Of a DNA stretch of 64,000 bases, positions 1,631-15,307 are shown one piece after another; position 1 is the stretch's first letter, and every line of letters begins with the position of its first letter. Origin of the DNA: a virus (Duplodnaviria > Caudoviricetes); IMG/VR virus record IMGVR_UViG_3300032116_000009. One strand, written 5' to 3'. A program made the translations under genes and the position numbers. The notes under the pieces were generated by a model. The model was not told the origin of the DNA. It worked only from the letters and a program-made list of their open reading frames with translations, and made no database searches.

Positions 1631-3025
1631 TCACATGAGGTTGGAAACCTTGACTCTTCTGTAGTAACGGTTTGCATTGAGGCGGAGTCTTCCGAGTCCC
1701 TGATCGGTTCCTTCTGCAAATGGGTTGGCAACAATACCATAACGGGTCTTGAAGCCAATTTTTGGTTGGAAGGTGTCCTGACCGACGGCACGAACCATCT
1801 GGAGAGGAACATATGGGCAGTAGAAGATACCAGCATCATATGCGCTAGAACCCTTATAACCTACAACGTAGTACTGATCAGCAGCAACGTTAGCAGCATA
1901 TGGGTCAATGTATACACGATACTTACCTTGGAGAACACCAGCGAAGGTGTTACCAGTGTCATCAACGTTAAGGTTAGCGTTGAGTGCAGGGGTGTAATCA
2001 AGTACACCGGCCATGGTTAGTGCGGAAGCAACGTCTGCAGAACAGATGATGGTGTTGCCCTTTCCTCTACGAGTTCTTTGTGCGATTGCGTTAGCATCAC
2101 GCTCGATTTGGAAGAGTAGACCCTTGAACTTCTCAACGGACCAACGACCATTAGAGTCAACGTCAAGGTCGAATACACCAGCAGTAGCGGTGTTAACAGC
2201 AGCACCTTGCTCAGCAACCTTATAGATGGTTCTGATAACTTCTCTGTTGATTTCTGCGAGGATCTCAGTGGAGAGAATGTTAGCAAGTTCTGCTTCTGCA
2301 TTTAGACCATGAATTGCCTTGAGGTCTTGAGCGAGTTCTAGTGAATACTCAGCCTTGAGGGCGCGTGACTTAGCAGTTACGGTTACCTTCTCGATGCTGA
2401 ATGCCATCTGGTTGAAGGCATTAGCAGCAGCATCTCCAAGAGCTTCTGATTCACCAGTCGCCATACCCTGACCAACGTTGTATGGAGATGGGTTGGTTGT
2501 TGCGGTTCCAACTGGATTGAGAACGTTAGGATTGGTTCCATCCTGGTTGGTTGTACCGAAACCAACTAGACCATCGGAGAATCCGCTGGAAAGGTTGCGG
2601 CTGTTGTTCTGACCAGAGAAGGTGGTATCTACTTCATCGAAGAAGGTCTCAGTACCAGACTGGTTATCGTAGCGGGAACGCATTGCGAAGATGAGTCCAG
2701 TAGGACCACTCATTGGTTGAACGCCACAGATGTCATAAGCGATGAGGTTAGGCATCGAACGACGAATGAGGCTGATTAGAACTGGATCGAAACCAGCAAC
2801 TGGACCACCAGCAGTAGCACCACCACTAAATCCACCGGTACCGGCAGAGTTAACTGGGGAAGCTTCGCCGAGGAACTCAGCAGACTCACGGAGTTCTCTC
2901 TCTTGGTTCTCGAGCATTTGTGCAGTTACTGCACGTCTGTGGGAATCTTTGATTTCTCCTAGACCGTCGAAGTCTAGAACTGGAGCCCACTTCTCCATTA
3001 ACATTTGTGAATTAATTCCGTCCAT
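1631..3025 (-). CDS. 23: Major capsid protein gp23
   Basis: EKWAPVL...LENQ, FDPVLISLIRRSMPNLIAYDICGVQPMSGPTGLIFAMR, AKSRALKAEYSLELAQDLKAIHGLNAEAELANILSTEILAEINRE, FQPKIGFKTRYG. Probable maturation site FLGE|ASP. Confidence 0.99.
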   Translation of the reverse strand: MDGINSQMLMEKWAPVLDFDGLGEIKDSHRRAVTAQMLENQERELRESAEFLGEASPVNSAGTGGFSGGATAGGPVAGFDPVLISLIRRSMPNLIAYDICGVQPMSGPTGLIFAMRSRYDNQSGTETFFDEVDTTFSGQNNSRNLSSGFSDGLVGFGTTNQDGTNPNVLNPVGTATTNPSPYNVGQGMATGESEALGDAAANAFNQMAFSIEKVTVTAKSRALKAEYSLELAQDLKAIHGLNAEAELANILSTEILAEINREVIRTIYKVAEQGAAVNTATAGVFDLDVDSNGRWSVEKFKGLLFQIERDANAIAQRTRRGKGNTIICSADVASALTMAGVLDYTPALNANLNVDDTGNTFAGVLQGKYRVYIDPYAANVAADQYYVVGYKGSSAYDAGIFYCPYVPLQMVRAVGQDTFQPKIGFKTRYGIVANPFAEGTDQGLGRLRLNANRYYRRVKVSNLM

Positions 3026-3085: not shown

Positions 3086-4261
3086 TCACTTTTTAGCAAC
3101 GTTGGAAAGCGCACGCAAATAAGCGTCCATAGAAGGTGAATGAGTCACCTCTTGGAAATTCGCTTCTTCTGATAGATTTTCCGTCTCGTTTGCTGGAATA
3201 CCAGCATTTCTTGGGAAATAAGACTCCCTAAGAGTTACCAGTTTCTGGTAATAGTCATCTTCACTCTCAAACTCAACACTTTCTACGAGGCTTGCAAGCT
3301 TATCCTTTTGGGAAAGAGCGAGACCCTCGGAAACCTGATTGAAAATGCTGTCAGCAGCAGATTCTGCAAGTTTCTTGTTAAGAGCAATATTTCTTTGAAT
3401 TTGCTCGTTGAGTTTTGTCTCCATTTCATCAAGTTTTTCTACCATGCTCTCTAGAACATCATATTTCTCTTCAGGCATTGATACATAATGTGCTTCAAAA
3501 AGTCCCTTCATACCATTGATGAAGGACTCGGTGATCTCAGTTTTGAGACCACTTTCAACTGCGAGAGCATTTTCTTCTAACCATTCGGATGCAACATACT
3601 CTAGGTATGAATCAACACGCTCGGTTAGTTCTAGTTTAATTTCTTCAACCTCTTCTGCAAGAGCAGTAGCATAGTGCTCTTCCATTACTGATTGAATTTC
3701 TTTTGTTTTGGCGTGAAGGGCAGCTTCAAATACAAGCTTTGCCTTTTCTTTAAACTCTTCGGAGAGTTCTTCTTCGCCAGATAGGAGAGCATTTACATCC
3801 TCTTCAATGATAGAATCTACATCTTCTTCTACCACTTCTTCAGCACCCTCTTCAGATTCTTCTGTTGCTTCTGTTTCTTCTTCAGTCGCTTCAGTTTCTT
3901 CTTCTTCAACTAGATCCTCATCTTCTTCTACTTCTTCCTTCATTCCACCACCTTGACCTGGTGTTGAAACAGGAGTTGCAGAAGTTTGAGGAGCTTCAGC
4001 TGCAGCAGCTTTAGCATTGACAACATCTTTAACTTGCTTCAGGGTTGCACCTGGAGTTTTTAAAGTATTTGAGTTGTCATCTGGACGACTGTTTTCTGGG
4101 GTTGGACCGCCAAGATCTTCCCAAGCACCAGTTTGTCCAGGAGTTGCAACAGGGGTTGCACTCTTGTGTGGTGCTTCTGCTGCAGCTGCATTAGCGTTTA
4201 CAGCAGTTTTGGATTGTGAAGTGCCGGTTTCCATTTCTTGTAAATTCTTACCACGGGACAT
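3086..4261 (-). CDS. 22: Prohead core scaffold protein gp22
   Basis: Very acidic centre, ELSEEFKEKAKLVFEAA, VDSYLEYVASEWLEENALAVESGLKTEITESF; located between gp21 and gp23. Confidence 0.95.
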   Translation of the reverse strand: MSRGKNLQEMETGTSQSKTAVNANAAAAEAPHKSATPVATPGQTGAWEDLGGPTPENSRPDDNSNTLKTPGATLKQVKDVVNAKAAAAEAPQTSATPVSTPGQGGGMKEEVEEDEDLVEEEETEATEEETEATEESEEGAEEVVEEDVDSIIEEDVNALLSGEEELSEEFKEKAKLVFEAALHAKTKEIQSVMEEHYATALAEEVEEIKLELTERVDSYLEYVASEWLEENALAVESGLKTEITESFINGMKGLFEAHYVSMPEEKYDVLESMVEKLDEMETKLNEQIQRNIALNKKLAESAADSIFNQVSEGLALSQKDKLASLVESVEFESEDDYYQKLVTLRESYFPRNAGIPANETENLSEEANFQEVTHSPSMDAYLRALSNVAKK

Positions 4262-4306: not shown

Positions 4307-4957
4307 TTATAGATTTGATAAAAACTCATTAAACAGATTTAACTTCTGTTCATCAAGTCTTCTTTGATCAACAAGAGTATTAATTCTCTTTTGAGTTTTT
4401 GAAACGAGTTGTTCACGAAGGATTCCACCTTCCCAAACCCACTCTTTTCCTTCCATGATTCCAGAAACAAAAGCATCTGGAGCAGAAGGATCAGCGACGA
4501 TATCAGCTGCAGTAGCAAGCATAAAATCTTCACCAACTACTTTGTGACCTTCACTAGTTGTTTGGAGTGAACCAACACCACGAGAAGAAACGCCAAGCAT
4601 TACACCTTCATCAAGAAGTGAGGATGCAATTTTTCCCATTGGAGTATTCAAAATTTGTGCTTTACCGATAAAATTATTTCCCTCTTGAGTGAGAGAAGTG
4701 ATTTTATGTGAAACACGATCAAGGTTTACAGTAGGACCATCGGGGTGTCCGAGTTCTCCTAAAGCGCGACCTTTAGATACAAACTGTTCATTATAACGAT
4801 CAACCTCACGAGAGAGAACAGTGATGGGATACATTCTCCCATTACGGTTTTTAATTTCTCCTTGGAGAAATACTCCTTCAATATAAAGTTTTTTATTATC
4901 ACCTTTTCCTTCAGTGATAATTTTTACATTCGTTACTTCTTCGGTAATTAGTTTCAT
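4307..4957 (-). CDS. 21: Prohead core protease gp21
   Basis: LYIEGVFLQGEIKNRNGRMYP, ALGELGHPDGP, LDRVSH, GVSSRGVGS, DIVADPSAPDAFV. Confidence 0.98.
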   Translation of the reverse strand: MKLITEEVTNVKIITEGKGDNKKLYIEGVFLQGEIKNRNGRMYPITVLSREVDRYNEQFVSKGRALGELGHPDGPTVNLDRVSHKITSLTQEGNNFIGKAQILNTPMGKIASSLLDEGVMLGVSSRGVGSLQTTSEGHKVVGEDFMLATAADIVADPSAPDAFVSGIMEGKEWVWEGGILREQLVSKTQKRINTLVDQRRLDEQKLNLFNEFLSNL

Positions 4958-4962
4958 GGTTC

Positions 4963-5232
4963 TTAGTTGGTAAGTCCTACTTTGGCAGCTTTCACAGACG
5001 CAGAAGATGCAAAAATTACATCCGTTGCAGCTTTTTGAAGAAATTCAACATCACCTGTAGCCATTGTGAATGAATTGGTTGTTGCAGCTCCAACAGCAGT
5101 TGAAATACTTACCGTAGCTGCAGCACCAGAACCATTGTATAATCTTACGCAAGTTGCTTCACTAATACTGGAAGCAGCGCCTGCAGTTGTTGGCATTGCA
5201 ACTTCTGTTGCAATTATTTTTGTTCTTTGCAT
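4963..5232 (-). CDS. Small hypothetical protein (89 aa, beta-rich) between portal and protease genes
   Basis: Clean ORF with its own upstream ATAAATA box (5258-5264); Ala/Thr/Ser-rich. Confidence 0.75.
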   Translation of the reverse strand: MQRTKIIATEVAMPTTAGAASSISEATCVRLYNGSGAAATVSISTAVGAATTNSFTMATGDVEFLQKAATDVIFASSASVKAAKVGLTN

Positions 5233-5263: not shown

Positions 5264-5458
5264 TTATTCTGCATCTTCCTCTGCAACTTCATCATCACTT
5301 TCTTCCACATTTTCTTCATTTCCGAAAACTGATGCAGCAACCGCAGGTCTAATAATATCAATATTTTCTGCTGATTTTTGCATTAAAATCTCTTTAATTC
5401 TGTCGCTGATATCTGATGGGGATTGGTCAGCAACAATCATGTCAATTAAATCATCCAT
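5264..5458 (-). CDS. Small acidic protein, probable gp67-like prohead core protein
   Basis: Directly after gp20 where T4 has gene 67; MDDLIDMI... amphipathic helix plus acidic tail (EENVEESDDEVAEEDAE); upstream ATAAATA at 5486-5492. Confidence 0.6.
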   Translation of the reverse strand: MDDLIDMIVADQSPSDISDRIKEILMQKSAENIDIIRPAVAASVFGNEENVEESDDEVAEEDAE

Positions 5459-5491: not shown

Positions 5492-7195
5492 TTAGATCCT
5501 ACCACCCTTAGGCATAGTGGCTTTAGGAGCTTCTTCTGTTGGTTGCATCTCAACAGAAGCAGTTGAAGCTTCTGGTGAAACTGGAACTTCGCCCATAGAT
5601 CCTTGATCAATAGGTGGTTGTTCCCCAACAGGAAGTCCAGTTGTAGGATCTACATCGGGTGGAATAATTCCTTTTTCTTTCTCTTTTACTATTTGTTCAT
5701 CAATTTCTACAATTTCAGAATCAGTTTGTTTGAGAATAACTCTTCTGACATAATCTACAGAAAAATATTTCCCAACGTATGGTTCAGCAACTGCAAGAAC
5801 ATTGAGTCTGTTTTGAATCAATTCTGCTTCTTTTAGTTCTGCAAAGTGATTGTCATAAACATAATCGAATTGAATGTGATCGGAAAGAATTTTCCAGTCT
5901 TCTGGAGTTACAATATTTTTGAGGATAAGTTGAGTCTTTAACATATCCATGAATAGTTGAGAAAATCTCTTTCTCATTCTTCCGACGAACTTAGTAAATT
6001 TAATTTCGTCTCTTAAAATCTCTGAAGATCTGCCTAGGTTGAATCCACCTGTTCCACCCAAACGAGACTCTGGAACACCAAGAGCTCTATAAAGTTTCTT
6101 CTGGAAATATTCAATATCAGCAAGTTCTCCAAGGTTTTGCCCACCTGGAAGAGTAGAGATTTCAGTTCCTCTACCACCTTCACGGCGAGGGAGCCAGAAA
6201 TCTTCTAGCATTGCCATCATTCTTTTATCATCACGAATTTCTCCAGTATTGGCGTCATAAACTAACTTATTGCGATAGCGAGTCATGACATCACGGAGAT
6301 ATTGTTCCGCTTTAATTTTTGGTAGATTGCCAACATCAATATAAAAGATACGACGTTCTGGAGCACGAGACAATCTGTATATAACAAGAGAGTCTTCAAT
6401 CATTCTTAATTGATTGAGAGCTTTGATTGCTTTGTGTAGGTATGAAAGAACAACTTGTTTATTCCTATCTACAAGACCGGAATGTACATATGTGATTGAA
6501 TCTTTAGAAATTCTTGCAGCGCCACCTACACCACTCTTAAAAGTACTTGTTCTTTGACCACCCCTAGTATTTGGATCATATTCATAAAATTCTTCCACTT
6601 CGGGAGTGCTCATACTAACGTTCCCTGATTTACCATCAGTAACCATAAAAGATGGATTCAAAACATGTTTTCCATCTCTTTTAATTTTTCTTACAAGTTT
6701 AATTTTTGTAGGATCAATATATCTTACTTCTTTAATTCCTTCTTGTGGTTTTTCTAAATCTATAACTTTATGATAATAAATTCTACCGTCTACGTACCAA
6801 TTTCTTAGAATCTCATGACATCTTTTATCAAAATCTAAAATTTCTTTAATATAGATAAACTCATCTCTAATAATTTTTTTGAGTTTATCTGAAGCGGGTA
6901 CATTCGATAAGTCTATTTGTACTGGAGAATCATTTTGATCAGATACTATTGCTTCATTTATAACGTCTTCTATAGCTCCATCCACCTCTGGATGTAAAGC
7001 CATTTCACGATATCTTTTAATTAAATCATATTCTGATTTATAAACTCCTTCAATGTCAACATATTGTCCATAAAATCCACTAGACACATAAAAGTCCGAA
7101 GAATCTTCTTGATTCTCCGGAACAGGAGAGACGATAGACTTTTTAGATCTATCGTCCTCCGAATCTTGGATTTTAAAACCAAATAATTTAGGCAT
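5492..7195 (-). CDS. 20: Portal vertex protein gp20
   Basis: LIKRYREMALHPEVDGAIEDV, WYVDGRIYYHK, LRMIEDSLVIYRLSRAPERRIFYIDVGNLPKIKAEQYL, MLEDFWLPRREGGRGTEISTLPGGQNLGE. Confidence 0.99.
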   Translation of the reverse strand: MPKLFGFKIQDSEDDRSKKSIVSPVPENQEDSSDFYVSSGFYGQYVDIEGVYKSEYDLIKRYREMALHPEVDGAIEDVINEAIVSDQNDSPVQIDLSNVPASDKLKKIIRDEFIYIKEILDFDKRCHEILRNWYVDGRIYYHKVIDLEKPQEGIKEVRYIDPTKIKLVRKIKRDGKHVLNPSFMVTDGKSGNVSMSTPEVEEFYEYDPNTRGGQRTSTFKSGVGGAARISKDSITYVHSGLVDRNKQVVLSYLHKAIKALNQLRMIEDSLVIYRLSRAPERRIFYIDVGNLPKIKAEQYLRDVMTRYRNKLVYDANTGEIRDDKRMMAMLEDFWLPRREGGRGTEISTLPGGQNLGELADIEYFQKKLYRALGVPESRLGGTGGFNLGRSSEILRDEIKFTKFVGRMRKRFSQLFMDMLKTQLILKNIVTPEDWKILSDHIQFDYVYDNHFAELKEAELIQNRLNVLAVAEPYVGKYFSVDYVRRVILKQTDSEIVEIDEQIVKEKEKGIIPPDVDPTTGLPVGEQPPIDQGSMGEVPVSPEASTASVEMQPTEEAPKATMPKGGRI

Positions 7196-7226: not shown

Positions 7227-7898
7227 TTAGAGTTCCGCAGTTGGGGTCTCAGTAGTAGATAATTGTGAAGCTCCACCATTATCGAGAGCATCCCACCACT
7301 GAACTTGTAAATCTACAGTAAATTCTTCGATTGTATCAGCAGAATCATAGGAAAGGTCAATCGCACTTACTGAAGTTGGGAATATTCCGTAGAACTTATA
7401 AGCCTTTAGAACAGGTAATGTCGTTCCAATTGTAATTGCAGGATCAGCAACGTTTCCAGTAGCATTTTGGATAGAAGCTCTTCCAAACTGCTTTACTATA
7501 GCATCTCTTTGATACTGTGCTGGATTAATTAAACCAGAGTTATCATCATGTTTGTTGATTGCATTCATCCACTTTTCAAATGTTGTTCTTAATTTAAAAT
7601 CAACATCGTTAATTATTGTAATAGTCCACACATCAAAGGTTCTATCTCCAGCTATCTTTAAATTTCTTCCTCTAAAAGGAACTTCAATTACTCCAACATT
7701 TGAAGCTGGCAAGTTAGCTGCCTTGATCATAAATCTAGATAACTCTGAGATAGTAGTGTCATTACCAGTAGCGAATGTGGGAAAACCAAGTTCTACTTCA
7801 AATAGATTTGGTCTAGCACCACCACCAATTAGTTTTGATTTAAAATCTTCTAGAGTTCTTTGTTGAAAGGTTGATGTATTTGAAAATTGTGCAGCCAT
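7227..7898 (-). CDS. 19: Tail tube protein gp19
   Basis: GGGARPNLFEV, KAANLPAS, EVPFRGRNLKIAGDRTFDVWTITIIND, IEEFTVDLQVQWW. Confidence 0.98.
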   Translation of the reverse strand: MAAQFSNTSTFQQRTLEDFKSKLIGGGARPNLFEVELGFPTFATGNDTTISELSRFMIKAANLPASNVGVIEVPFRGRNLKIAGDRTFDVWTITIINDVDFKLRTTFEKWMNAINKHDDNSGLINPAQYQRDAIVKQFGRASIQNATGNVADPAITIGTTLPVLKAYKFYGIFPTSVSAIDLSYDSADTIEEFTVDLQVQWWDALDNGGASQLSTTETPTAEL

Positions 7899-7939: not shown

Positions 7940-10348
7940 TTAAACGGTTCCGACAATCTCTTCGAAGCTAACTCCAGTTCTGTTAGCAACAAAAGTTAGA
8001 CCAACAAAGTTAATTGATCGTGCTGGTTTTACAAAAATATCAGCCCTAAATTGATTTGAATCAATAATATCTGGAGTATTATTGGATTCATCACAAATAA
8101 CTAAGAAGTCTGTTATACCTCTCTTTGCCCTTACATCACGGAGATATGGTTCAACAATATTCAAGAAGTTTGATCTTGTTACAGCATCATTGAATTCGAA
8201 TAGTTGGGCTCTTGCAGCTCTTTCAATGGTCTCTTCGATGGTTAGGAATAGACGACGAACATTTATTCTATCAAAAGCTGATGAATAAGAAAGTCCTGTT
8301 TTATCACCAAAAAGAATAATTCCGGATCCAGGAGAGAAAATAACTGGATTAATTCTCTTAGGATAAAGAAGATCCCTTTGACCTTGACTTGGATTGTATG
8401 CAAGTTTAACCGCATTGTTGATAGTTCCTCTTGCAGCTCCTGCTGGGGAGAACCATGGATAATTATTAATAGATGTTCTTGCCATGAGTCCAGCAATATC
8501 TCCATTCAATGGGATATATCTAAACTGATTATTAAATCTATCGAACATGTATTTGAATCCAGAATCAAATACTGCATAAGAACTTGAAGATACTGAATCG
8601 TAGAAATTAATTATGTTCGATGTTTGGGTATCACTATTGGTTACATTTACAACACCACTTCTGTGTGGGGATATGGTTACTACACAATCTTTTCTTGATT
8701 CTGCAATGGAAATAAGTTTATTTGCTTTTGCTTGAGAATCAAAGATTGTTTCTCCACCACTTGGACCACCGAGAATAAAGTTTATATTATATTCTGCTGG
8801 GTTTGATAGTATATCATAAGAACTTAGGATATTTGCCAGACTCACAGAATATCCATTACCAGCTCCATAGTTGTGGCCATTTTGTAATGAATAAGTTTTT
8901 GCACCAGAAAGTCCAAAAGTAGTTGAATTTGCTTCCTGACCCCAAGCGATTGACCCTCCACTGGATAATACATAACCATCCAGGGATGTGAATGAAGGAG
9001 AAAGTAAAGCATCTACTTCGCCAGCGTAAATATATTCTGAATTATTTTGAATATATGTCTTATAGTAAATATTTTCACTTGGAGTAATTTTGGCGTCTGT
9101 AGCTTTTGACAGATTGGTAAATTTCTCTAGAATGTTACCAGATATTCCAGAAACGGATCCACTATCATCGACTACAACTACGTGTACCTCATCATTTTTT
9201 CCATTTCTTGAGTCGGTATACTGAGATGTTCCTGGTCTAGGAGCAATGTTTTTCCAAAATACAGTAGAATTAGTTAATCCTAAAGTCTGTTGATCATACC
9301 AATCGACTACTGAATTAAGATCACTATTAGGAAGTAACCCCTCACCTCTACTTAAAGTTCCATCTATAGAATTTCTGACATAGGTTACAACTAAAGTTGT
9401 AGCTGCAAGCGCAACAGGAGAAACTGTATCTACGATGATTTGACCAGTTGCTAGTCCAACCACTCTTGCTTTAAATGTACTATTCAGTGATTGAATTAAA
9501 TCACCAACTTCAACATTATTTGATATTGAAGCGGTAGTTGCTACTACAGTAGATCCGATTCCGATTGTAGCTGCATTAGAAATTCTAAACTTCTCTAGGG
9601 AAGTAGCAGTTCCTACATTATTAAAGACTTGATAGTAAATACTTCCCTCACCTTCTGGTTGTTGAAATATTTTATTGAGTCCATTTGTTTGATATGAAAC
9701 GGAAGTACTTAATCCGGTAGTTGAATCATGTCTACTTACAATTTTTACATCCACACTACCAACATTAACTTTTGTAATAATTCCCTTGATGTATCCATTG
9801 AAAGTTTCTACAGTTCCTGAAGAAGTTACATATGAAGTGCTGACTCCGCAAGTCATAGCATAACCTACAGCTAAACCAAAAGTACCAATAGAAACTCTTT
9901 GGTCTGCAGCACTATCAATTACACAAACTTTCAATCCATTAGCCCAAGATCCTGCTTCTTTAGAAGCAAAAAACCATCCGGTTGAACTTGTATAATTATT
10001 TTGATAATCTTCTTGTGATTTTATTTTTAGAGTTACGGCACTTCCACCAACACCTGCATGTGCGTTGATTAATTCATCATCATCTGATCTAATAACTCTT
10101 AATGTTCCTCCATAAGAGAGATATGAGGATGCAGTTAACCAATATTCATACTGACCATCAGTATTAGATGGTTTGCCGAATGTGTTTAAAAGATCCTGTT
10201 CGGTCTCTACTAGAACTGGTTGTCCAATAGGTCCTCTAAGAAATGGGCCGGCGATTGCTGCAACTTGATCATTTACTGCATCGATTCTGCCTACAGTAAG
10301 ATCAACTTCTCTGACCTTTACGCCTGGTGATACTAAGTTTAGCGACAT
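7940..10348 (-). CDS. 18: Tail sheath protein gp18
   Basis: MSLNLVSPGVKVREVDLT, FGKP, WFSPAGAARG, FDRINVRRLF, IFVKPARSINFVGLTFVANRTGVSFEE; upstream ATAAATA at 10386-10392. Confidence 0.99.
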   Translation of the reverse strand: MSLNLVSPGVKVREVDLTVGRIDAVNDQVAAIAGPFLRGPIGQPVLVETEQDLLNTFGKPSNTDGQYEYWLTASSYLSYGGTLRVIRSDDDELINAHAGVGGSAVTLKIKSQEDYQNNYTSSTGWFFASKEAGSWANGLKVCVIDSAADQRVSIGTFGLAVGYAMTCGVSTSYVTSSGTVETFNGYIKGIITKVNVGSVDVKIVSRHDSTTGLSTSVSYQTNGLNKIFQQPEGEGSIYYQVFNNVGTATSLEKFRISNAATIGIGSTVVATTASISNNVEVGDLIQSLNSTFKARVVGLATGQIIVDTVSPVALAATTLVVTYVRNSIDGTLSRGEGLLPNSDLNSVVDWYDQQTLGLTNSTVFWKNIAPRPGTSQYTDSRNGKNDEVHVVVVDDSGSVSGISGNILEKFTNLSKATDAKITPSENIYYKTYIQNNSEYIYAGEVDALLSPSFTSLDGYVLSSGGSIAWGQEANSTTFGLSGAKTYSLQNGHNYGAGNGYSVSLANILSSYDILSNPAEYNINFILGGPSGGETIFDSQAKANKLISIAESRKDCVVTISPHRSGVVNVTNSDTQTSNIINFYDSVSSSSYAVFDSGFKYMFDRFNNQFRYIPLNGDIAGLMARTSINNYPWFSPAGAARGTINNAVKLAYNPSQGQRDLLYPKRINPVIFSPGSGIILFGDKTGLSYSSAFDRINVRRLFLTIEETIERAARAQLFEFNDAVTRSNFLNIVEPYLRDVRAKRGITDFLVICDESNNTPDIIDSNQFRADIFVKPARSINFVGLTFVANRTGVSFEEIVGTV

Positions 10349-10435: not shown

Positions 10436-10666
10436 TTACCAGTCAGGATATTCCCATTTATCAAAAACTCTATTAGTCATTCTACTGGAGACTATTCTTT
10501 GAATAGTGCAATTTTTACACTCATATGAATATGCTGATGCTATGCCACCTCTACCTTTTCTCGTAAGATAAAAACCATCAATAAGATCTTTTACTTTTCC
10601 ACACTTTCTACATTTTCTCTCAGTAAGAAATAAATGTTCTAATTCAAATTGATCATCAAAATCCAT
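10436..10666 (-). CDS. Hypothetical zinc-finger protein (CxxC...CxxC), translationally coupled to gp17
   Basis: RKCRKCGKVKDLIDGFY...YECKNC; ATG overlaps the gp17 stop (TAATG). Confidence 0.75.
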   Translation of the reverse strand: MDFDDQFELEHLFLTERKCRKCGKVKDLIDGFYLTRKGRGGIASAYSYECKNCTIQRIVSSRMTNRVFDKWEYPDW

Positions 10667-12315
10667 TATCTATAATCCCACATATATTGCATGTCTCCAT
10701 ATTCATCAACATGCCAACGATCGCCATCTTCATCAACAAAGCTTTCTCCACTATCTAACCCATCAGAAATGAATCCGAAAGGGGCCATATCTTGTTCAAT
10801 TTGATTTTTTTGTTCTTCATAAATCCTTTTACGAACATCATTGTCCGTCATTTCTTTGAAGTATGGTTGCATGATTAACCATGCAAAAATAACTAGACAC
10901 ATTGCAAGATCATCATTACAACCATCTTCAGCCTCAAAAGAATTAGCTTTCTGAATGAAAGTTGTGAGTTCACTGATCACTTCATAGTCTTTAATGACTA
11001 ATTTATCTTCTTCTATTAAAGTCTTAAGATTCATGCATCCAATCTTTTTGACATTTTTGGACATCTTCACGCCCATTTGAGATTTCTTACCAGAAAACCC
11101 TTGACCCACTAATTGACCAGCACGACCCCTCATCGTACACATAAGGACGTTATCATATTCCAAATCCATATGAAGAATCTGTCCAACTTGTTCACCAACG
11201 TCATTAACTTCAACTAAAACATATGCTTTATTGTAAGCGACTGCAAGATCTTTGATAATACTCGGAAATAACATTGGTTTAATCTGGTTATTTCTGTATT
11301 TTGCTACAAGTCTATATGGAAAACTTGTTGTATCACAAATTGTAAATGCTGAATAATCTTTCTCTACGCCCCTAGCAACATCAACCGTTAAAACATAATT
11401 ATGATCCTTTTGAGGTTCTTCATAAATGTCAAGGCCTGCATTTCTTTTTATGGGATCATCGTAAACTAAAGATCTGAGTTTTGCTGCAGATATGAGAGTA
11501 TCGACAGATCCTAAAAATTCGCACTCAAACTCAACTTTAAATTGTTGTTCTGACGTGTTTGCAATAGTTTGTGCTTTCCACTTATCGTCTCTTCCTGGAA
11601 CTTCGGACCAATGAACATCTGTGGGAACGTATTCATTTTTACCGCGTTCGGCATCATGCCACATACGGTAAAAATGATTCATACCTTTTGGGGTAGAAAC
11701 AATTAGGACTTTTGTGCTTTGTCCAGACGATATAGTAGGATAAACAGAGGCAAAGAATTCATCAGCAATGTGATTCGGGATGAAAGCGAATTCGTCCAAA
11801 AAGATGATATTATACGATCCGCCTCGGACAGCAGATGCAGAAGTAGATGCGGCGATAATTTTTGAGCCATTCTCCAGTTCTAGAGATCGTTTGTTCCATG
11901 ATACGATACCTTGTTGCATCCATTTTGGCAGTTTTTCATATGCAAATTGTAATCTACTAAGTAGATCTTGTGCTGTGGATGCCTTGTTGGCTAGAATAGC
12001 TATGTTAACATTATCATTAAACACTGCATAATGTAACAAATATGAAACACAAGTTGTAGATTTACCTGTCTGACGAGGCATTCTACAAATGTTAAATCTA
12101 TTTTCGTGAAAGTTTGTAATTAACTTCTCTTGGAATGGATACATCCTAAAAGGTATTTCACCATAGTCTAGTGAAACAATCTTGATATAATTTTTAGCAA
12201 AATACACAGGATCGTTCTTGCACTTTACAAACTCAAGAACTTGTTCCTGTGTAAATTCTACGGCTACATTAGCCTTTTTAAGGTTGGGATTACCAAGATA
12301 TACCTGATCACTCAT
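10666..12315 (-). CDS. 17: Terminase large subunit gp17
   Basis: YLGNPNLK, Walker A PRQTGKST, ILANKASTA, Walker B IIFLDEFAF, VSTPKGMNHFY, nuclease VDVARG and DDLAMCL. No intein-sized insertion. Confidence 0.99.
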   Translation of the reverse strand: MSDQVYLGNPNLKKANVAVEFTQEQVLEFVKCKNDPVYFAKNYIKIVSLDYGEIPFRMYPFQEKLITNFHENRFNICRMPRQTGKSTTCVSYLLHYAVFNDNVNIAILANKASTAQDLLSRLQFAYEKLPKWMQQGIVSWNKRSLELENGSKIIAASTSASAVRGGSYNIIFLDEFAFIPNHIADEFFASVYPTISSGQSTKVLIVSTPKGMNHFYRMWHDAERGKNEYVPTDVHWSEVPGRDDKWKAQTIANTSEQQFKVEFECEFLGSVDTLISAAKLRSLVYDDPIKRNAGLDIYEEPQKDHNYVLTVDVARGVEKDYSAFTICDTTSFPYRLVAKYRNNQIKPMLFPSIIKDLAVAYNKAYVLVEVNDVGEQVGQILHMDLEYDNVLMCTMRGRAGQLVGQGFSGKKSQMGVKMSKNVKKIGCMNLKTLIEEDKLVIKDYEVISELTTFIQKANSFEAEDGCNDDLAMCLVIFAWLIMQPYFKEMTDNDVRKRIYEEQKNQIEQDMAPFGFISDGLDSGESFVDEDGDRWHVDEYGDMQYMWDYR

Positions 12316-12324
12316 AAGACAAAA

Positions 12325-12501
12325 TTACAATTTCGCTAAACTTGCTACGACTTCTTGTTGTTTGAGATATAGTTTAAAATAAGCTTTGGCAAATTCTATT
12401 GCTTCATCTCTATCTAACTTATCTATAACCCTCGATTGTTGTTCATAAATTAACATCTTATTAATATCTTCAAGTACTATTTCAGAGGGATTTACGTTCA
12501 T
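12325..12501 (-). CDS. Unannotated 58-aa helical protein, possibly NblA-like
   Basis: Below the track cutoff; translated by hand: MNVNPSEIVLEDINKMLIYEQQSRVIDKLDRDEAIEFAKAYFKLYLKQQEVVASLAKL*. It fills the gap exactly (1 nt after the upstream stop, 9 nt before gp17) and has an AAGGT SD-like sequence upstream. The ORF itself is well supported; the NblA call is tentative. Confidence 0.7.
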   Translation of the reverse strand: MNVNPSEIVLEDINKMLIYEQQSRVIDKLDRDEAIEFAKAYFKLYLKQQEVVASLAKL

Positions 12502-12502
12502 T

Positions 12503-14428
12503 TCAATTACCTTGAATAACTACAATTGGTTTTGTTGGGTCGGTAGGACTTGGATACCACTGCATTATAACTGCGCCTGGATAAAACTTTTCAATTTCCT
12601 TTTTCACTTCATCTTTTGATGGCCTCTTCATACTTGAGAAGAAAAGTTGAAGATTTGTCATTGGTCTACCTCTCCATGAAAAAAGTATAGTATAAACATT
12701 ACCACTAGATTGTATCCGTTGATAATCTTCGTTTGTCAATTGTCCTGGTTGAATAACAGAGTCTGCAAGAGGAAGAGAGGGGCCACTTAGTTTTCTAAGT
12801 GCGGCTTCTTTCTCTCCTTTGTTAGTAGTTCCAGTTGCAAGATTGCGAATTTTTGCTTGTCTTTGTGCATGTCTGTGTCCAGAACCGATTTCAAAACTCA
12901 CATTTTCATTTGCTGGGTGAACTTTTGCAATACTATATGGTTTTTCTGGAGCTAATGAAGAAGGTAGTGAGAACATTTTCCAATAACCTTCGCCGTATTT
13001 GCATTCGGAAGATGTTTCATTTTTTTGGCACTTTGGGCAATATCTTACTCCATTCATTTCTTCTGGAATAAATTCTTCTTTTTTGGTTTTATTGCCCCAG
13101 TTTGCAGCACCAACTTTACGACACTTAACTAACGCACCAGATGCATATGCAGAAGGCCAAACCTTATAACGAGATTTTACCTTTGAATAACATGCGTCCT
13201 TTTCTTCACCTAATTTTGCAGCCCTTCTTTTTGCTTTACTTCCTTTTCCTCTATCTCTGTTTTTACCTAAAGTGTCTGCCCAATAATCTTTATTCTTTCT
13301 ATTCATTTCACCACCAACAGATCTTTCTTCTGGAGGGGCACTTCTTCCACCACGACTTCTCATAGAATCAAATCTTTTATCCAATTCCTCAGTGGCAACC
13401 ATCTTAGCCTTACCCTTTCTATCTGGGTTTGGATCTTCCTGGTTCTTACGACGGAATGCTCTCTCCTCTTCTTTATCGGAGAGTTCTGCTTTCATTTTGC
13501 TGGAACCACACTTTGGTTTTGTGGTTTGTCCTGGTTGTTTTGCACAGGGTTTCCCTGCGTATTTACCACCCAGTTGAACCCAACCAGGGGTGCCATCAGA
13601 AGCGCGACTCTTAGTAAACCAGTCACGCAAAGAACTATCACCACTCTTGTTGGCTTCATCAATGGAATTCTCCTTCACACAATTAGGAACTATCTTCTTT
13701 CCTTTCTTTTTCATTCCGAGTTGTTTGTAACCATCCCAACATTTTTCGTTCACAGGCTCAGTAAAACTTTTGAATTTATAATCAGACCCTTTAACAATAT
13801 CAATAATAGTTGCAAAAAGATTTCCGTCTGCATCTAGAATCTCTAGATGTTCATTCATTCTTTTTTTACGACCTTGGCAGTGAGCTTTCTGGGAAAATCC
13901 TTTTGGATTATCACAATCAATTGACTTTTTATATTTTTCCGACCAATCTTCCTTTACCTTCTCCATTTTTCTAAGTTTGGAGTAGTAATTTGGAATTTCG
14001 TCTAAATGTTGCAATGCAATATCCATTGCTTGATCATTATCTGTAGTATGTTCCTTTTCAACTTTCATCCCCATCTCAAGTTGTTTTTCGATAACTGATG
14101 GAGATACTTTATGCTTTTTTGCGATTTCTTCTATGGATTTGTGTCCTTTGAACCCTTCTTTAACATCAGATTTTCTTTCTGTATCATCTTCTCCATGAGT
14201 AAGATGATCAGCTACTGTATCAAGATACTCTGCAGCTTTAGTGATTTTGGATTGTACCCACGCTTCTAGATCTCCTTCACCTTTGAGTTTGGTCATCAAT
14301 CTTGTAATTGCTGCCTGTGCAGTCTTAAGTTCTCCACGAGCCATTGAGAACTCAAAGTCTTCTCCAAGAGGTGCAATTGTTTGGAGGTCCGAGAGAATAG
14401 ACCACTCTTTAAAGGTAAGTTTTTCCAT
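12503..14428 (-). CDS. Modular basic protein, putative capsid-internal polyprotein
   Basis: Start moved from the track TTG (14461) to the ATG at 14428 (MEKLTFKEW), 1 nt after the upstream stop. A string of short K/R- and Cys-containing modules separated by hydrophobic-x-Glu linkers. From memory, EHTTD...HLDEIPNYYSKL resembles DUF5661 and KDACYSKVKSRYKVWPSAYASGALVKCRK resembles DUF5872; not verified. Confidence 0.8.
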   Translation of the reverse strand: MEKLTFKEWSILSDLQTIAPLGEDFEFSMARGELKTAQAAITRLMTKLKGEGDLEAWVQSKITKAAEYLDTVADHLTHGEDDTERKSDVKEGFKGHKSIEEIAKKHKVSPSVIEKQLEMGMKVEKEHTTDNDQAMDIALQHLDEIPNYYSKLRKMEKVKEDWSEKYKKSIDCDNPKGFSQKAHCQGRKKRMNEHLEILDADGNLFATIIDIVKGSDYKFKSFTEPVNEKCWDGYKQLGMKKKGKKIVPNCVKENSIDEANKSGDSSLRDWFTKSRASDGTPGWVQLGGKYAGKPCAKQPGQTTKPKCGSSKMKAELSDKEEERAFRRKNQEDPNPDRKGKAKMVATEELDKRFDSMRSRGGRSAPPEERSVGGEMNRKNKDYWADTLGKNRDRGKGSKAKRRAAKLGEEKDACYSKVKSRYKVWPSAYASGALVKCRKVGAANWGNKTKKEEFIPEEMNGVRYCPKCQKNETSSECKYGEGYWKMFSLPSSLAPEKPYSIAKVHPANENVSFEIGSGHRHAQRQAKIRNLATGTTNKGEKEAALRKLSGPSLPLADSVIQPGQLTNEDYQRIQSSGNVYTILFSWRGRPMTNLQLFFSSMKRPSKDEVKKEIEKFYPGAVIMQWYPSPTDPTKPIVVIQGN

Positions 14429-14429
14429 A

Positions 14430-14852
14430 TTACTTTTGATTAGATAAGTTTTTCTTTCCAAGTGAAATCACTTGATCTTTTGTCATACCAGTTGCTTTCA
14501 TCTTTGCTGCACCACCACCAGCAGCAAAATCATCCATTGGTTTTTTGACTGGTGTAGACTGCTGTTGAGAAGGTCTGTTTATTTTGTTAGAAAAATCTTG
14601 TTGTGCCTTTGCTGCTTTTGCCTTTTGTCCCGCATAAAGAACATCACTCACACTACTTCCTTTTTTTAGTGCTGCTTGTCCACCACCTGCTTTAAGGGCT
14701 GCATATCCACCTCTGTCAGAAAATTGCTTTGATCCAATCTGATTTGAAGCATAGGCATTTCTTTGAGCACTTGTAGTGAAACGACTATTTGGATTCATTG
14801 CCATTTCACTAATAGAATAAGCCTCGGCACAAAAATTTCGGAATGTCTTCAT
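14430..14852 (-). CDS. Putative internal head protein with T4-like capsid-targeting sequence
   Basis: Begins MKTFRNFCAE|A (T4 IPII/IPIII leader is MKTYQEFIAE); basic, Gly/Ala-rich; CTAAATA box at 14877-14883. Confidence 0.75.
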   Translation of the reverse strand: MKTFRNFCAEAYSISEMAMNPNSRFTTSAQRNAYASNQIGSKQFSDRGGYAALKAGGGQAALKKGSSVSDVLYAGQKAKAAKAQQDFSNKINRPSQQQSTPVKKPMDDFAAGGGAAKMKATGMTKDQVISLGKKNLSNQK

Positions 14853-14875: not shown

Positions 14876-15307
14876 TTATTTAGATGTATCTTGATTCATG
14901 GAACTCTTCAAGAACTTTTGAAGTTCTGCAGTAGAACCAAAGAATACTGCATTGTTAGTAACACTTGTCGGTGTTGCTCCTTTTTCTTCCTTATTAATAT
15001 CTTTCATTTTCTTTTGAAGATCTAAAAGTTTATCTGTAACATCTCCAACATTCTTGATTAATTGTCCAGCAACTTCATATGCTCTAGGTGAATCTGATTC
15101 TTGGGCTAGTTCTAGAATTCCATTAATCGCTTCTTGACCCTTCTCGATAATTGAGTAAAGTTGACCCCTAGAATATTCATAATCCTTTTGTAATTGATCA
15201 AGATTTTCTGTAGGTTTTTGAATATCAGTTACTTCTGTTTTAACTATTTCGGATTTAATCGTTGTTGGTTCTATATCTAAAGCTTTGTCAATATCATCAA
15301 AGTTCAT
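14876..15307 (-). CDS. 16: Terminase small subunit gp16
   Basis: DYEYSRGQLYSIIEKGQEAINGILELAQESDSPRAYEVAGQLIKNV...NNAVFFGSTAELQK. Confidence 0.95.
   Translation of the reverse strand: MNFDDIDKALDIEPTTIKSEIVKTEVTDIQKPTENLDQLQKDYEYSRGQLYSIIEKGQEAINGILELAQESDSPRAYEVAGQLIKNVGDVTDKLLDLQKKMKDINKEEKGATPTSVTNNAVFFGSTAELQKFLKSSMNQDTSK

Follow-up and report, generated by a model that had tools for sequence, protein, structure and literature searches.

A shuffled-module protein between the terminase genes of a T4-like cyanophage is probably a head-internal polyprotein cut by the gp21 prohead protease

We describe here a 641-residue protein encoded in a 64,000-nucleotide stretch of viral DNA, IMG/VR record IMGVR_UViG_3300032116_000009 (the whole of this stretch is called the window below), which DNA and protein searches both group with the Synechococcus T4-like cyanomyoviruses. 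The gene lies between the two terminase genes gp16 and gp17, belongs to the family labelled T4-GC119 or phrog_727, and encodes a mosaic of small modules (Table 1). Our analysis leads us to think that the product is probably a head-internal polyprotein processed by gp21, in effect a concatenated cyanophage counterpart of the internal proteins of the T-even phages. Its open reading frame (ORF) begins with an ATG at 14428, one base past the stop of the ORF upstream, and ends with a stop at 12505–12503; over 100 homologues with N-termini of the form M-x-K-L-[TS]-F-K-E-W support this start. The protein contains 13.4% lysine and 11 cysteines, and its isoelectric point is 9.3. An initial annotation had proposed that it is packaged in the capsid and cut into peptides after twelve x-x-Glu sites; the ORF is real, and all twelve listed sites, the cysteine pairs and the lysine richness are indeed present in the protein.

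The protein matches Pfam DUF5661 at residues 100–157 (E 4.8e-14; 52.9 bits against a gathering cut-off of 27) and the phrog_727 profile with an E of 1e-82, and its orthologue in phage S-SM1, SSM1_115, carries the label T4-GC119. A word-indexed search passed 7,997 of 8,000 scored candidates as relatives, and an exhaustive metagenome search returned 9,378 representative clusters (50% identity, E ≤ 0.001); the gene is absent from phage S-PM2, for which our own search likewise gave no match. Ends of local alignments cluster in the query at about residue 23 and at 91–93, 158–164, 193–196, 219–228, 251–265, 347–352, 405–409, 453–456, 508–519 and 564–574. Ten module cores were therefore mapped as separate profiles, defined from the query with the junction motifs left out on purpose, and 268 family proteins were found to contain 138 distinct module architectures. 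In them modules are lost, duplicated and also truly reordered (as in M7-M9-M6, M4-M2-M7-M9-M6 and M3-M10-M2-M6-M7-M9-M5-M12), and M7 is the most widespread module. The modules are thus self-contained and do shuffle, as had been proposed. The family members of SynMITS9220M01 and S-SM2 (L013 1635-3632; L014 1686-3812) also hold units that the query does not have, which were recognised by eye. One is a unit rich in Cys (KCKAGYYYC), another an inserted, apparently DUF192-like domain, and the third, at the C-terminus, looks similar to the DUF6321 domain that Pfam identifies in the protein of S-SM1. The first two are preceded by MNE, VKE or MSE, and the DUF6321-like unit by HAE or HTE, that is, by H-x-Glu. 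The inserted DUF192-like and DUF6321-like units suggest that larger cargo can travel in the same format.

An AlphaFold2 model built from 111 collinear homologues has low global confidence (mean predicted local distance difference test [pLDDT] score 53, predicted template modelling score 0.22) and was used solely for separating domains from linkers. The units it delineates are a helical hairpin (24–77), the helical DUF5661 domain (99–157), hairpins at 194–209 and 234–252, a small Cys unit (460–490) and an alpha/beta domain (566–638), and its low-confidence stretches are 18–27, 77–95, 158–162, 190–194, 209–228, 253–317, 324–410, 443–459 and 496–531. All of the candidate cleavage sites except TNE567 are predicted to lie in such linkers. 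Foldseek against a viral library found only family members, the best being the "Virion protein" of phage S-SCSM1, and neither a sequence search nor Foldseek against the PDB gave credible relatives. A feature search (Atlas) with module M9 gave sub-threshold leads only, to small stand-alone viral proteins that include a DUF5872-type protein (0.82).

T4 gp21 cuts after L/I-X-E (PMC9026906), and according to Pfam the window encodes both a gp21-type Peptidase_S77 prohead protease and a gp22 scaffold protein. The non-random feature of hydrophobic-x-Glu in the target protein is its placement, not its number. At 11 query positions 30% or more of the aligned relatives share [ILVM]xE, and nine of these positions (23, 91, 160, 193, 228, 253, 258, 408 and 457) fall at homology breakpoints and the other two inside DUF5661; of the control motifs, 0 of 7 [ILVM]xD and 5 of 15 [ILVM]xK positions lie at breakpoints. 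Joint conservation of the motif reaches 92% of relatives at LGE23, where many alignments also start, 86% at VKE91 and 87% at VNE228, and only 37% at LGE408. Among 876 distinct module starts in the family, 572 (65%) have [ILVM]xE within 10 residues before the core, with a sharp peak at −6 to −2, while the background for any 10-mer of family proteins is 13% and control motifs with D, K, S, N or Q in place of Glu give 6%, 9%, 5%, 3% and 1%. Starts whose upstream neighbor is non-canonical behave alike (293 of 459, 64%; controls 1–10%). The motif stands upstream of more than half of the copies of nine of the ten unrelated modules, and the tenth, M11, carries A-N-E. For M6 it is found just upstream in 122 of 138 distinct starts, and in 91 of the 103 that have a non-canonical neighbor. 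Junctions with foreign neighbors include LDEK-CW, IVEK-CW and MLGEK-CW for M6, VKED-WS and VSEG-WS for M4, IDENKSG and LNEGNKSG for M7, VDEATR and VKESYL for M12, and VKEESES-MRYC for M10. Within the module cores the motif is depleted relative to shuffled sequences in eight of ten (seen/expected: M2 13/134, M7 3/57, M12 15/74, M11 1/26, M5 0/13); M9 is not depleted, though almost none were expected there (3 against 1.2). The segments between cores are enriched (1498 against 857 expected), and 74% of linkers of 25 residues or fewer carry at least one motif. Module boundaries in the homologues coincide with the Glu sites, in favor of the initial proposal.

The first residues of several relatives point the same way. 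The T4 capsid-targeting sequence is the first 10 residues of internal protein IPIII, MKTYQEFIAE, where residues 4 and 7 are important to targeting and residues 8 and 10 to processing (PMC9026906). The query leader MEKLTFKEW contains a T-F-K-E-W core (compare T-Y-Q-E-F in T4) that is shifted by two residues and lacks an equivalent of the Glu at position 10; the 118 proteins of the query subfamily share the leader M-x-K-L-T-F-K-E-W...P-L-G-E/D, and one relative (P0105) has the unshifted form MKTFKEWSIL. Sixteen relatives that open with other modules carry T4-like leaders fused at the junction position, among them MKTFADFINE/SKSG..., MKSFRKFMSE/NKSG..., MKTFNEFMSE/GWS..., MKSHEFLNE/ACW... and MSVVSFKEFVIAE/AKDACY, and some relatives in which M7 comes first begin MKTFADFINE/SKSGDSSLRDWF. 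A leader match of such length would be surprising if chance alone were at work.

Modules are also encoded singly, in genes of their own. SynMITS9220M01_096, just upstream of that phage's large family gene, encodes 39 residues that consist of MKTFKQFQE/G, module M4 and a stop, and a 142-residue gene of S-SM2 starts MKTLKQFLKE/ and ends KTFEEFRE/S followed by M4. We found 62 small stand-alone M4 proteins: 17 begin at the module boundary (Met plus at most 2 residues), 31 have [ILVM]xE 0–2 residues from that boundary, and 27 end within 8 residues of the module end. The positions of starts and motifs indicate that gene boundaries coincide with the Glu sites, so that the initial expectation of separate module genes bounded at x-x-E sites, some of them with T4-type capsid-targeting leaders, is borne out. 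Taken together, the comparisons of family sequences show that a linker motif and the module behind it form a unit that phages can acquire, drop, move to another place in the order or encode in a gene of its own. One stand-alone M4 protein of 76 residues (L020 5001-5231) was seen on 58 contigs; its gene sits among the many small ORFs of an unrelated, virus-like contig and has no T4-like neighbors, and the modules are therefore not confined to gp16–gp17 loci.

The gene immediately upstream of the target, a 140-residue ORF rich in Ala, Gly, Lys and Gln, starts with MKTFRNFCAE/A, which is a capsid-targeting sequence of the strict T4 type; a scan of the 64-kb window found no other N-terminus like it. 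By its leader this ORF probably encodes a second head-internal protein; no homologue was found among isolated phages. We considered whether it might be the S-SM1 virion protein T4-GC403 and rejected this, since the two appear unrelated by eye (no alignment was made).

Homologues have been found in phage particles. T4-GC119 (SSM1_115) was detected in purified S-SM1 virions with 13 peptide counts (PMC3037559 Table S8), and ORF29 of S-SCSM1, a family member, is annotated "virion protein" in a study that identified 45 virion proteins by mass spectrometry (PMC9602691). Of the two things that the initial annotation had predicted, presence in virions and recovery as fragments, the first is supported by these homologues; the data are protein-level, and location inside the particle and fragment size are outside their scope.

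The following course of events fits these observations best. The leader, which resembles the T4 capsid-targeting sequence, would direct the protein into the prohead's scaffolding core, and during head maturation gp21 would cut after the Glu of hydrophobic-x-Glu motifs in flexible linkers. This would remove the leader and free about ten to twelve pieces of 3–10 kDa, mostly basic and several with Cys pairs, which would remain with the packaged DNA, some of them probably being injected alongside it. The predicted products are a 23-residue leader and pieces of 68, 69, 33, 35, 25 (or 30), 89, 61, 48, 52, 59 and 74 residues; seven pieces would carry net charges between +3 and +8, and in five there would be two or three Cys. 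By analogy with known internal proteins, DNA charge neutralization and service as injected anti-host or anti-defense factors are the most likely roles and our leading guesses, and an injected anti-host role would fit the extreme shuffling. A stronger form of the idea, that the gene is a combinatorial cassette whose pieces, a set particular to each phage, enter with the DNA as early anti-defense or host-takeover effectors, with the site-plus-module unit shuffled between phages, is in our judgment rather doubtful. The initial interpretation is in this way supported in part, by the comparative tests of shuffling and of separate genes bounded at x-x-E sites.

Several observations count against a processed polyprotein. 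In the target protein alone, [LIVM]xE occurs 12 times against 9.3 ± 2.6 in shuffles, which is chance level, and strict [LI]xE 6 times against 5.4 expected; motif density is similar to that of other window proteins except gp22. The impression gained from the one sequence might therefore have been due to chance; the test had to be comparative, and the plain count in a single protein, which shows no enrichment and is unusable alone, was replaced by the family-level placement tests above. Four listed sites (347, 408, 508 and 567) have no conserved hydrophobic residue at P3, the Glu alone being conserved at ATE347, ANE508 and TNE567. The M3 (DUF5661) core is not depleted and keeps conserved internal motifs at 101 and 144. 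Of 261 family N-termini, 127 (some of them fragments) have no recognizable leader, and these include the S-SM1 protein that was detected in virions; the T4-GC119 protein was undetected in the Syn9 virion, and the gel-slice or filter-aided preparation of the virion samples suggests that larger species persist in part. Cleavage by gp21 is a prediction for every member of the family. In addition, family sequences share ancestry, so that z-scores overstate their independence, and the motif moves with the module downstream of it and for any single module may be a structural element; the stronger argument on these sequences is the agreement across unrelated modules and non-canonical junctions.

The most serious competitor, although we hold it to be clearly less probable than processing, is that the protein stays uncut, or is trimmed only of its leader, and acts as a multi-domain internal or virion protein, a Lys-rich chain of small DNA- or metal-binding domains in which hydrophobic-x-Glu is a capping or linker element inherited with each module. 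The co-movement of motif and module, virion detection by methods that favor larger species, the motifs inside DUF5661, the four junctions without a hydrophobic P3 and the leaderless half or so of the family would all sit comfortably with such a chain. T4 gp23 itself has many L/I-x-E sites that are not cut, and gp23 of the window contains seven [LIVM]xE. An uncut chain does not so readily account for the same motif lying upstream of nine of ten unrelated folds, for its being Glu-specific (1–9% for the D, K, S, N and Q controls) and depleted inside cores, or for T4-type leaders and the starts of separate genes falling at the same position. We prefer the gp21-processed polyprotein.

The surroundings of the gene bear on a further alternative. 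The window is AT-rich, every large gene is on the minus strand in T4 order (Table 1), and neck genes and giant fiber proteins lie beyond gp16. The closest isolate, S-SCSM2R, has a 724-residue homologue at the equivalent place between both terminase genes; a phrog_727/T4-GC119 gene lies within the gp16–gp17 interval in S-SCSM2R, Syn9 and S-SM1, and directly upstream of gp17 in S-SM2 and SynMITS9220M01 (in these two gp16 is outside the stretch examined). That interval is a recognized hot spot for auxiliary genes (PMC3037559, PMC4928673). In the window a 58-residue ORF at 12325–12501 (minus strand), between the target and gp17, is by eye clearly like an NblA-annotated gene that occupies the same position in S-SCSM2R (L001 6181-6348). 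In S-SM1 the gene directly after gp16, T4-GC403 (L012 1999-2535), gave 60 peptide counts and is among the more abundant non-core virion proteins; it has no equivalent in the window, and the interval appears to house several virion components, which vary from phage to phage.

Table 1. Modules of the 641-residue protein and genes of the window, with positions in the window
Feature	Residues	Window positions	Strand	Remarks
Leader MEKLTFKEW...PLGE/	1–23	14360–14428	−	LGE23 is the first candidate cut
M2, two-helix hairpin	24–91	14156–14359	−	Ends VKE91/
M3, helical Pfam DUF5661	92–160	13949–14155	−	Ends VKE160/; pLDDT ~80
M4, DWSEKYKKSIDC...AHCQGRKK, Cys pair	161–193	13850–13948	−	Ends MNE193/
M5, beta hairpin	194–228	13745–13849	−	Ends VNE228/
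M6, KCWDGY...PNC, Cys pair	229–258	13655–13744	−	Two candidate sites, VKE253/ and IDE258/
M7, SLRDWF...GKPCA...KPKC..., basic	259–347	13388–13654	−	Ends ATE347/
Basic low-complexity spacer, net +8	348–408	13205–13387	−	Ends LGE408/
M9, KDACY...WPSAYASGALVKCRK, Cys pair	409–456	13061–13204	−	Ends IPE456/
M10, RYCPKC...EC, three Cys	457–508	12905–13060	−	Ends ANE508/
M11	509–567	12728–12904	−	Ends TNE567/
M12, C-terminal alpha/beta domain	568–641	12506–12727	−	pLDDT ~80
gp23		1631–3025	−	Pfam Gp23
gp22 scaffold protein		3086–4261	−	T4 scaffold family PF25623, E 4.7e-77
gp21 prohead protease		4307–4957	−	Peptidase_S77 PF03420, E 1.9e-37; enzyme proposed as the cutter
gp20		5492–7195	−	
gp19		7227–7898	−	
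gp18		7940–10348	−	
gp17 (terminase)		10666–12315	−	
Target gene	641 in all	12503–14428	−	T4-GC119/phrog_727 member, small-module mosaic
ORF upstream of target	140 in all	14430–14852	−	
gp16 (terminase)		14876–15307	−	

The protein might, given this location, be a non-head product of the hypervariable gp16–gp17 region, with a host-takeover or auxiliary function or as an external decoration, that merely co-purifies with virions and is processed, if at all, by other proteases. Such a product would suit an auxiliary hot spot with an NblA-like neighbor, and the absence of the gene from S-PM2 and the failure to detect the protein in Syn9 virions are in its favor; it is nevertheless improbable in view of the homologues in two independent virion proteomes, the T4-type leaders on relatives and on the gene immediately upstream, and the agreement of the junction motif with gp21 specificity. 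Finally, it is very unlikely that the pattern is a by-product of module recombination or of linker composition with no function at the protein level, since, although the linkers are Lys- and Glu-rich and the sequences phylogenetically related, the residue at P3 may be I, L, V or M and any residue may stand at P2 (which does not point to a conserved DNA word), [ILVM]xK shows no enrichment even though Lys is the commonest residue, and shuffling within linkers yields 234 motifs against the 456 observed.

Other head genes of the window also carry motifs of this kind. Residues 51–54 of gp23 (2864–2875, minus strand) form a candidate maturation site, AEFLGE54/ASP, which confirms the FLGE/A site noted initially and whose T4 equivalent we take to be FLTE/A. 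The gp22 scaffold carries 29 [LIVM]xE sites (74 per 1000 residues). The N-terminal region of gp21 contains LITE6/ and IITE16/, which recall the LIE-9 noted for T4 gp21 (PMC9026906) and, as sequences, fit the self-processing suggested for that enzyme. Between gp20 and gp21 lies a 64-residue ORF with an acidic tail (5264–5458, minus strand) that resembles T4-type gp67 prohead core proteins, as judged against the proteins printed in the supplement of PMC3037559, and an 89-residue ORF at 4963–5232 comes after it. Apart from this small gp67-like ORF, no counterpart of the T-even internal proteins was recognized in the window.

The initial annotation held that such a cargo system matches no characterized pathway. 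This was too strong, as T-even internal proteins that are targeted to the capsid and the cutting of one precursor at several sites by gp21 are precedents for it (PMC9026906, PMC3012670). The internal proteins IPI, IPII and IPIII have leaders with aromatic residues at 4 and 7 and hydrophobic-x-Glu at 8–10, which the S77 protease removes; they are basic, are packed with the DNA and form a repertoire that varies between related phages (PMC9026906, PMC3012670). They are a highly diverse set that has only the leader in common, their lysines make contact with the phosphates of DNA, and one of them, IPI*, inhibits a restriction enzyme (PMC3012670). The protein described here differs in that a single ORF joins many unrelated small modules end to end, with a protease-type motif at each junction, and in that its canonical leader is longer (23 residues, with the predicted cut at LGE23). 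It has no sequence similarity to IPI–III (searches of Pfam, PDB and PHROG gave no match to them), and its packaging, cleavage and injection are predictions from sequence. The T4 core proteins gp22, gp67 and gp68 show that one precursor can be cut by gp21 at several L/I-x-E sites inside the prohead (PMC9026906), but they are scaffold, and their mostly acidic fragments, the "internal peptides", largely leave the head. The units described here are, by contrast, conserved, mostly basic and independently shuffled, which points to a function after cleavage. In the giant phages phiKZ, 201phi2-1 and SPN3US, a gp21-like protease processes many head proteins behind Glu residues, in some of them at more than one site, and these inner-body or ejection proteins are packed with the DNA and ejected (PMC9026906, PMC5694885); these proteins differ in their S/A-X-E motif and in being large and subject mainly to propeptide removal, and they are not strings of exchangeable mini-modules. 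The labels Pfam DUF5661, phrog_727 and T4-GC119 come without a function and none of them describes modular processing, and in literature on DUF5661 and on capsid targeting or internal proteins in cyanophages we found no description of the family or of a cyanophage counterpart. For the T-even phages it is already established that there are targeting leaders, that gp21 has its specificity, that core proteins are cut at multiple sites and that internal-protein repertoires are hypervariable; the novelty here lies in a single ORF that strings together exchangeable "site plus module" units.

The T4-like cyanophages rank with the most abundant viruses of the ocean, and the present family is very large. 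From a large block of "hypothetical" sequence there now follows a testable prediction: virion proteomics should show exact neo-N-termini. The natural leader and junction sequences also offer themselves for loading cargo into cyanophage heads. If the proposed processing is correct, it would identify the internal-protein repertoire of the cyanophages and extend to them the targeting-and-cleavage logic of T4, in a polyprotein format that would let phages mix and match small head cargo.

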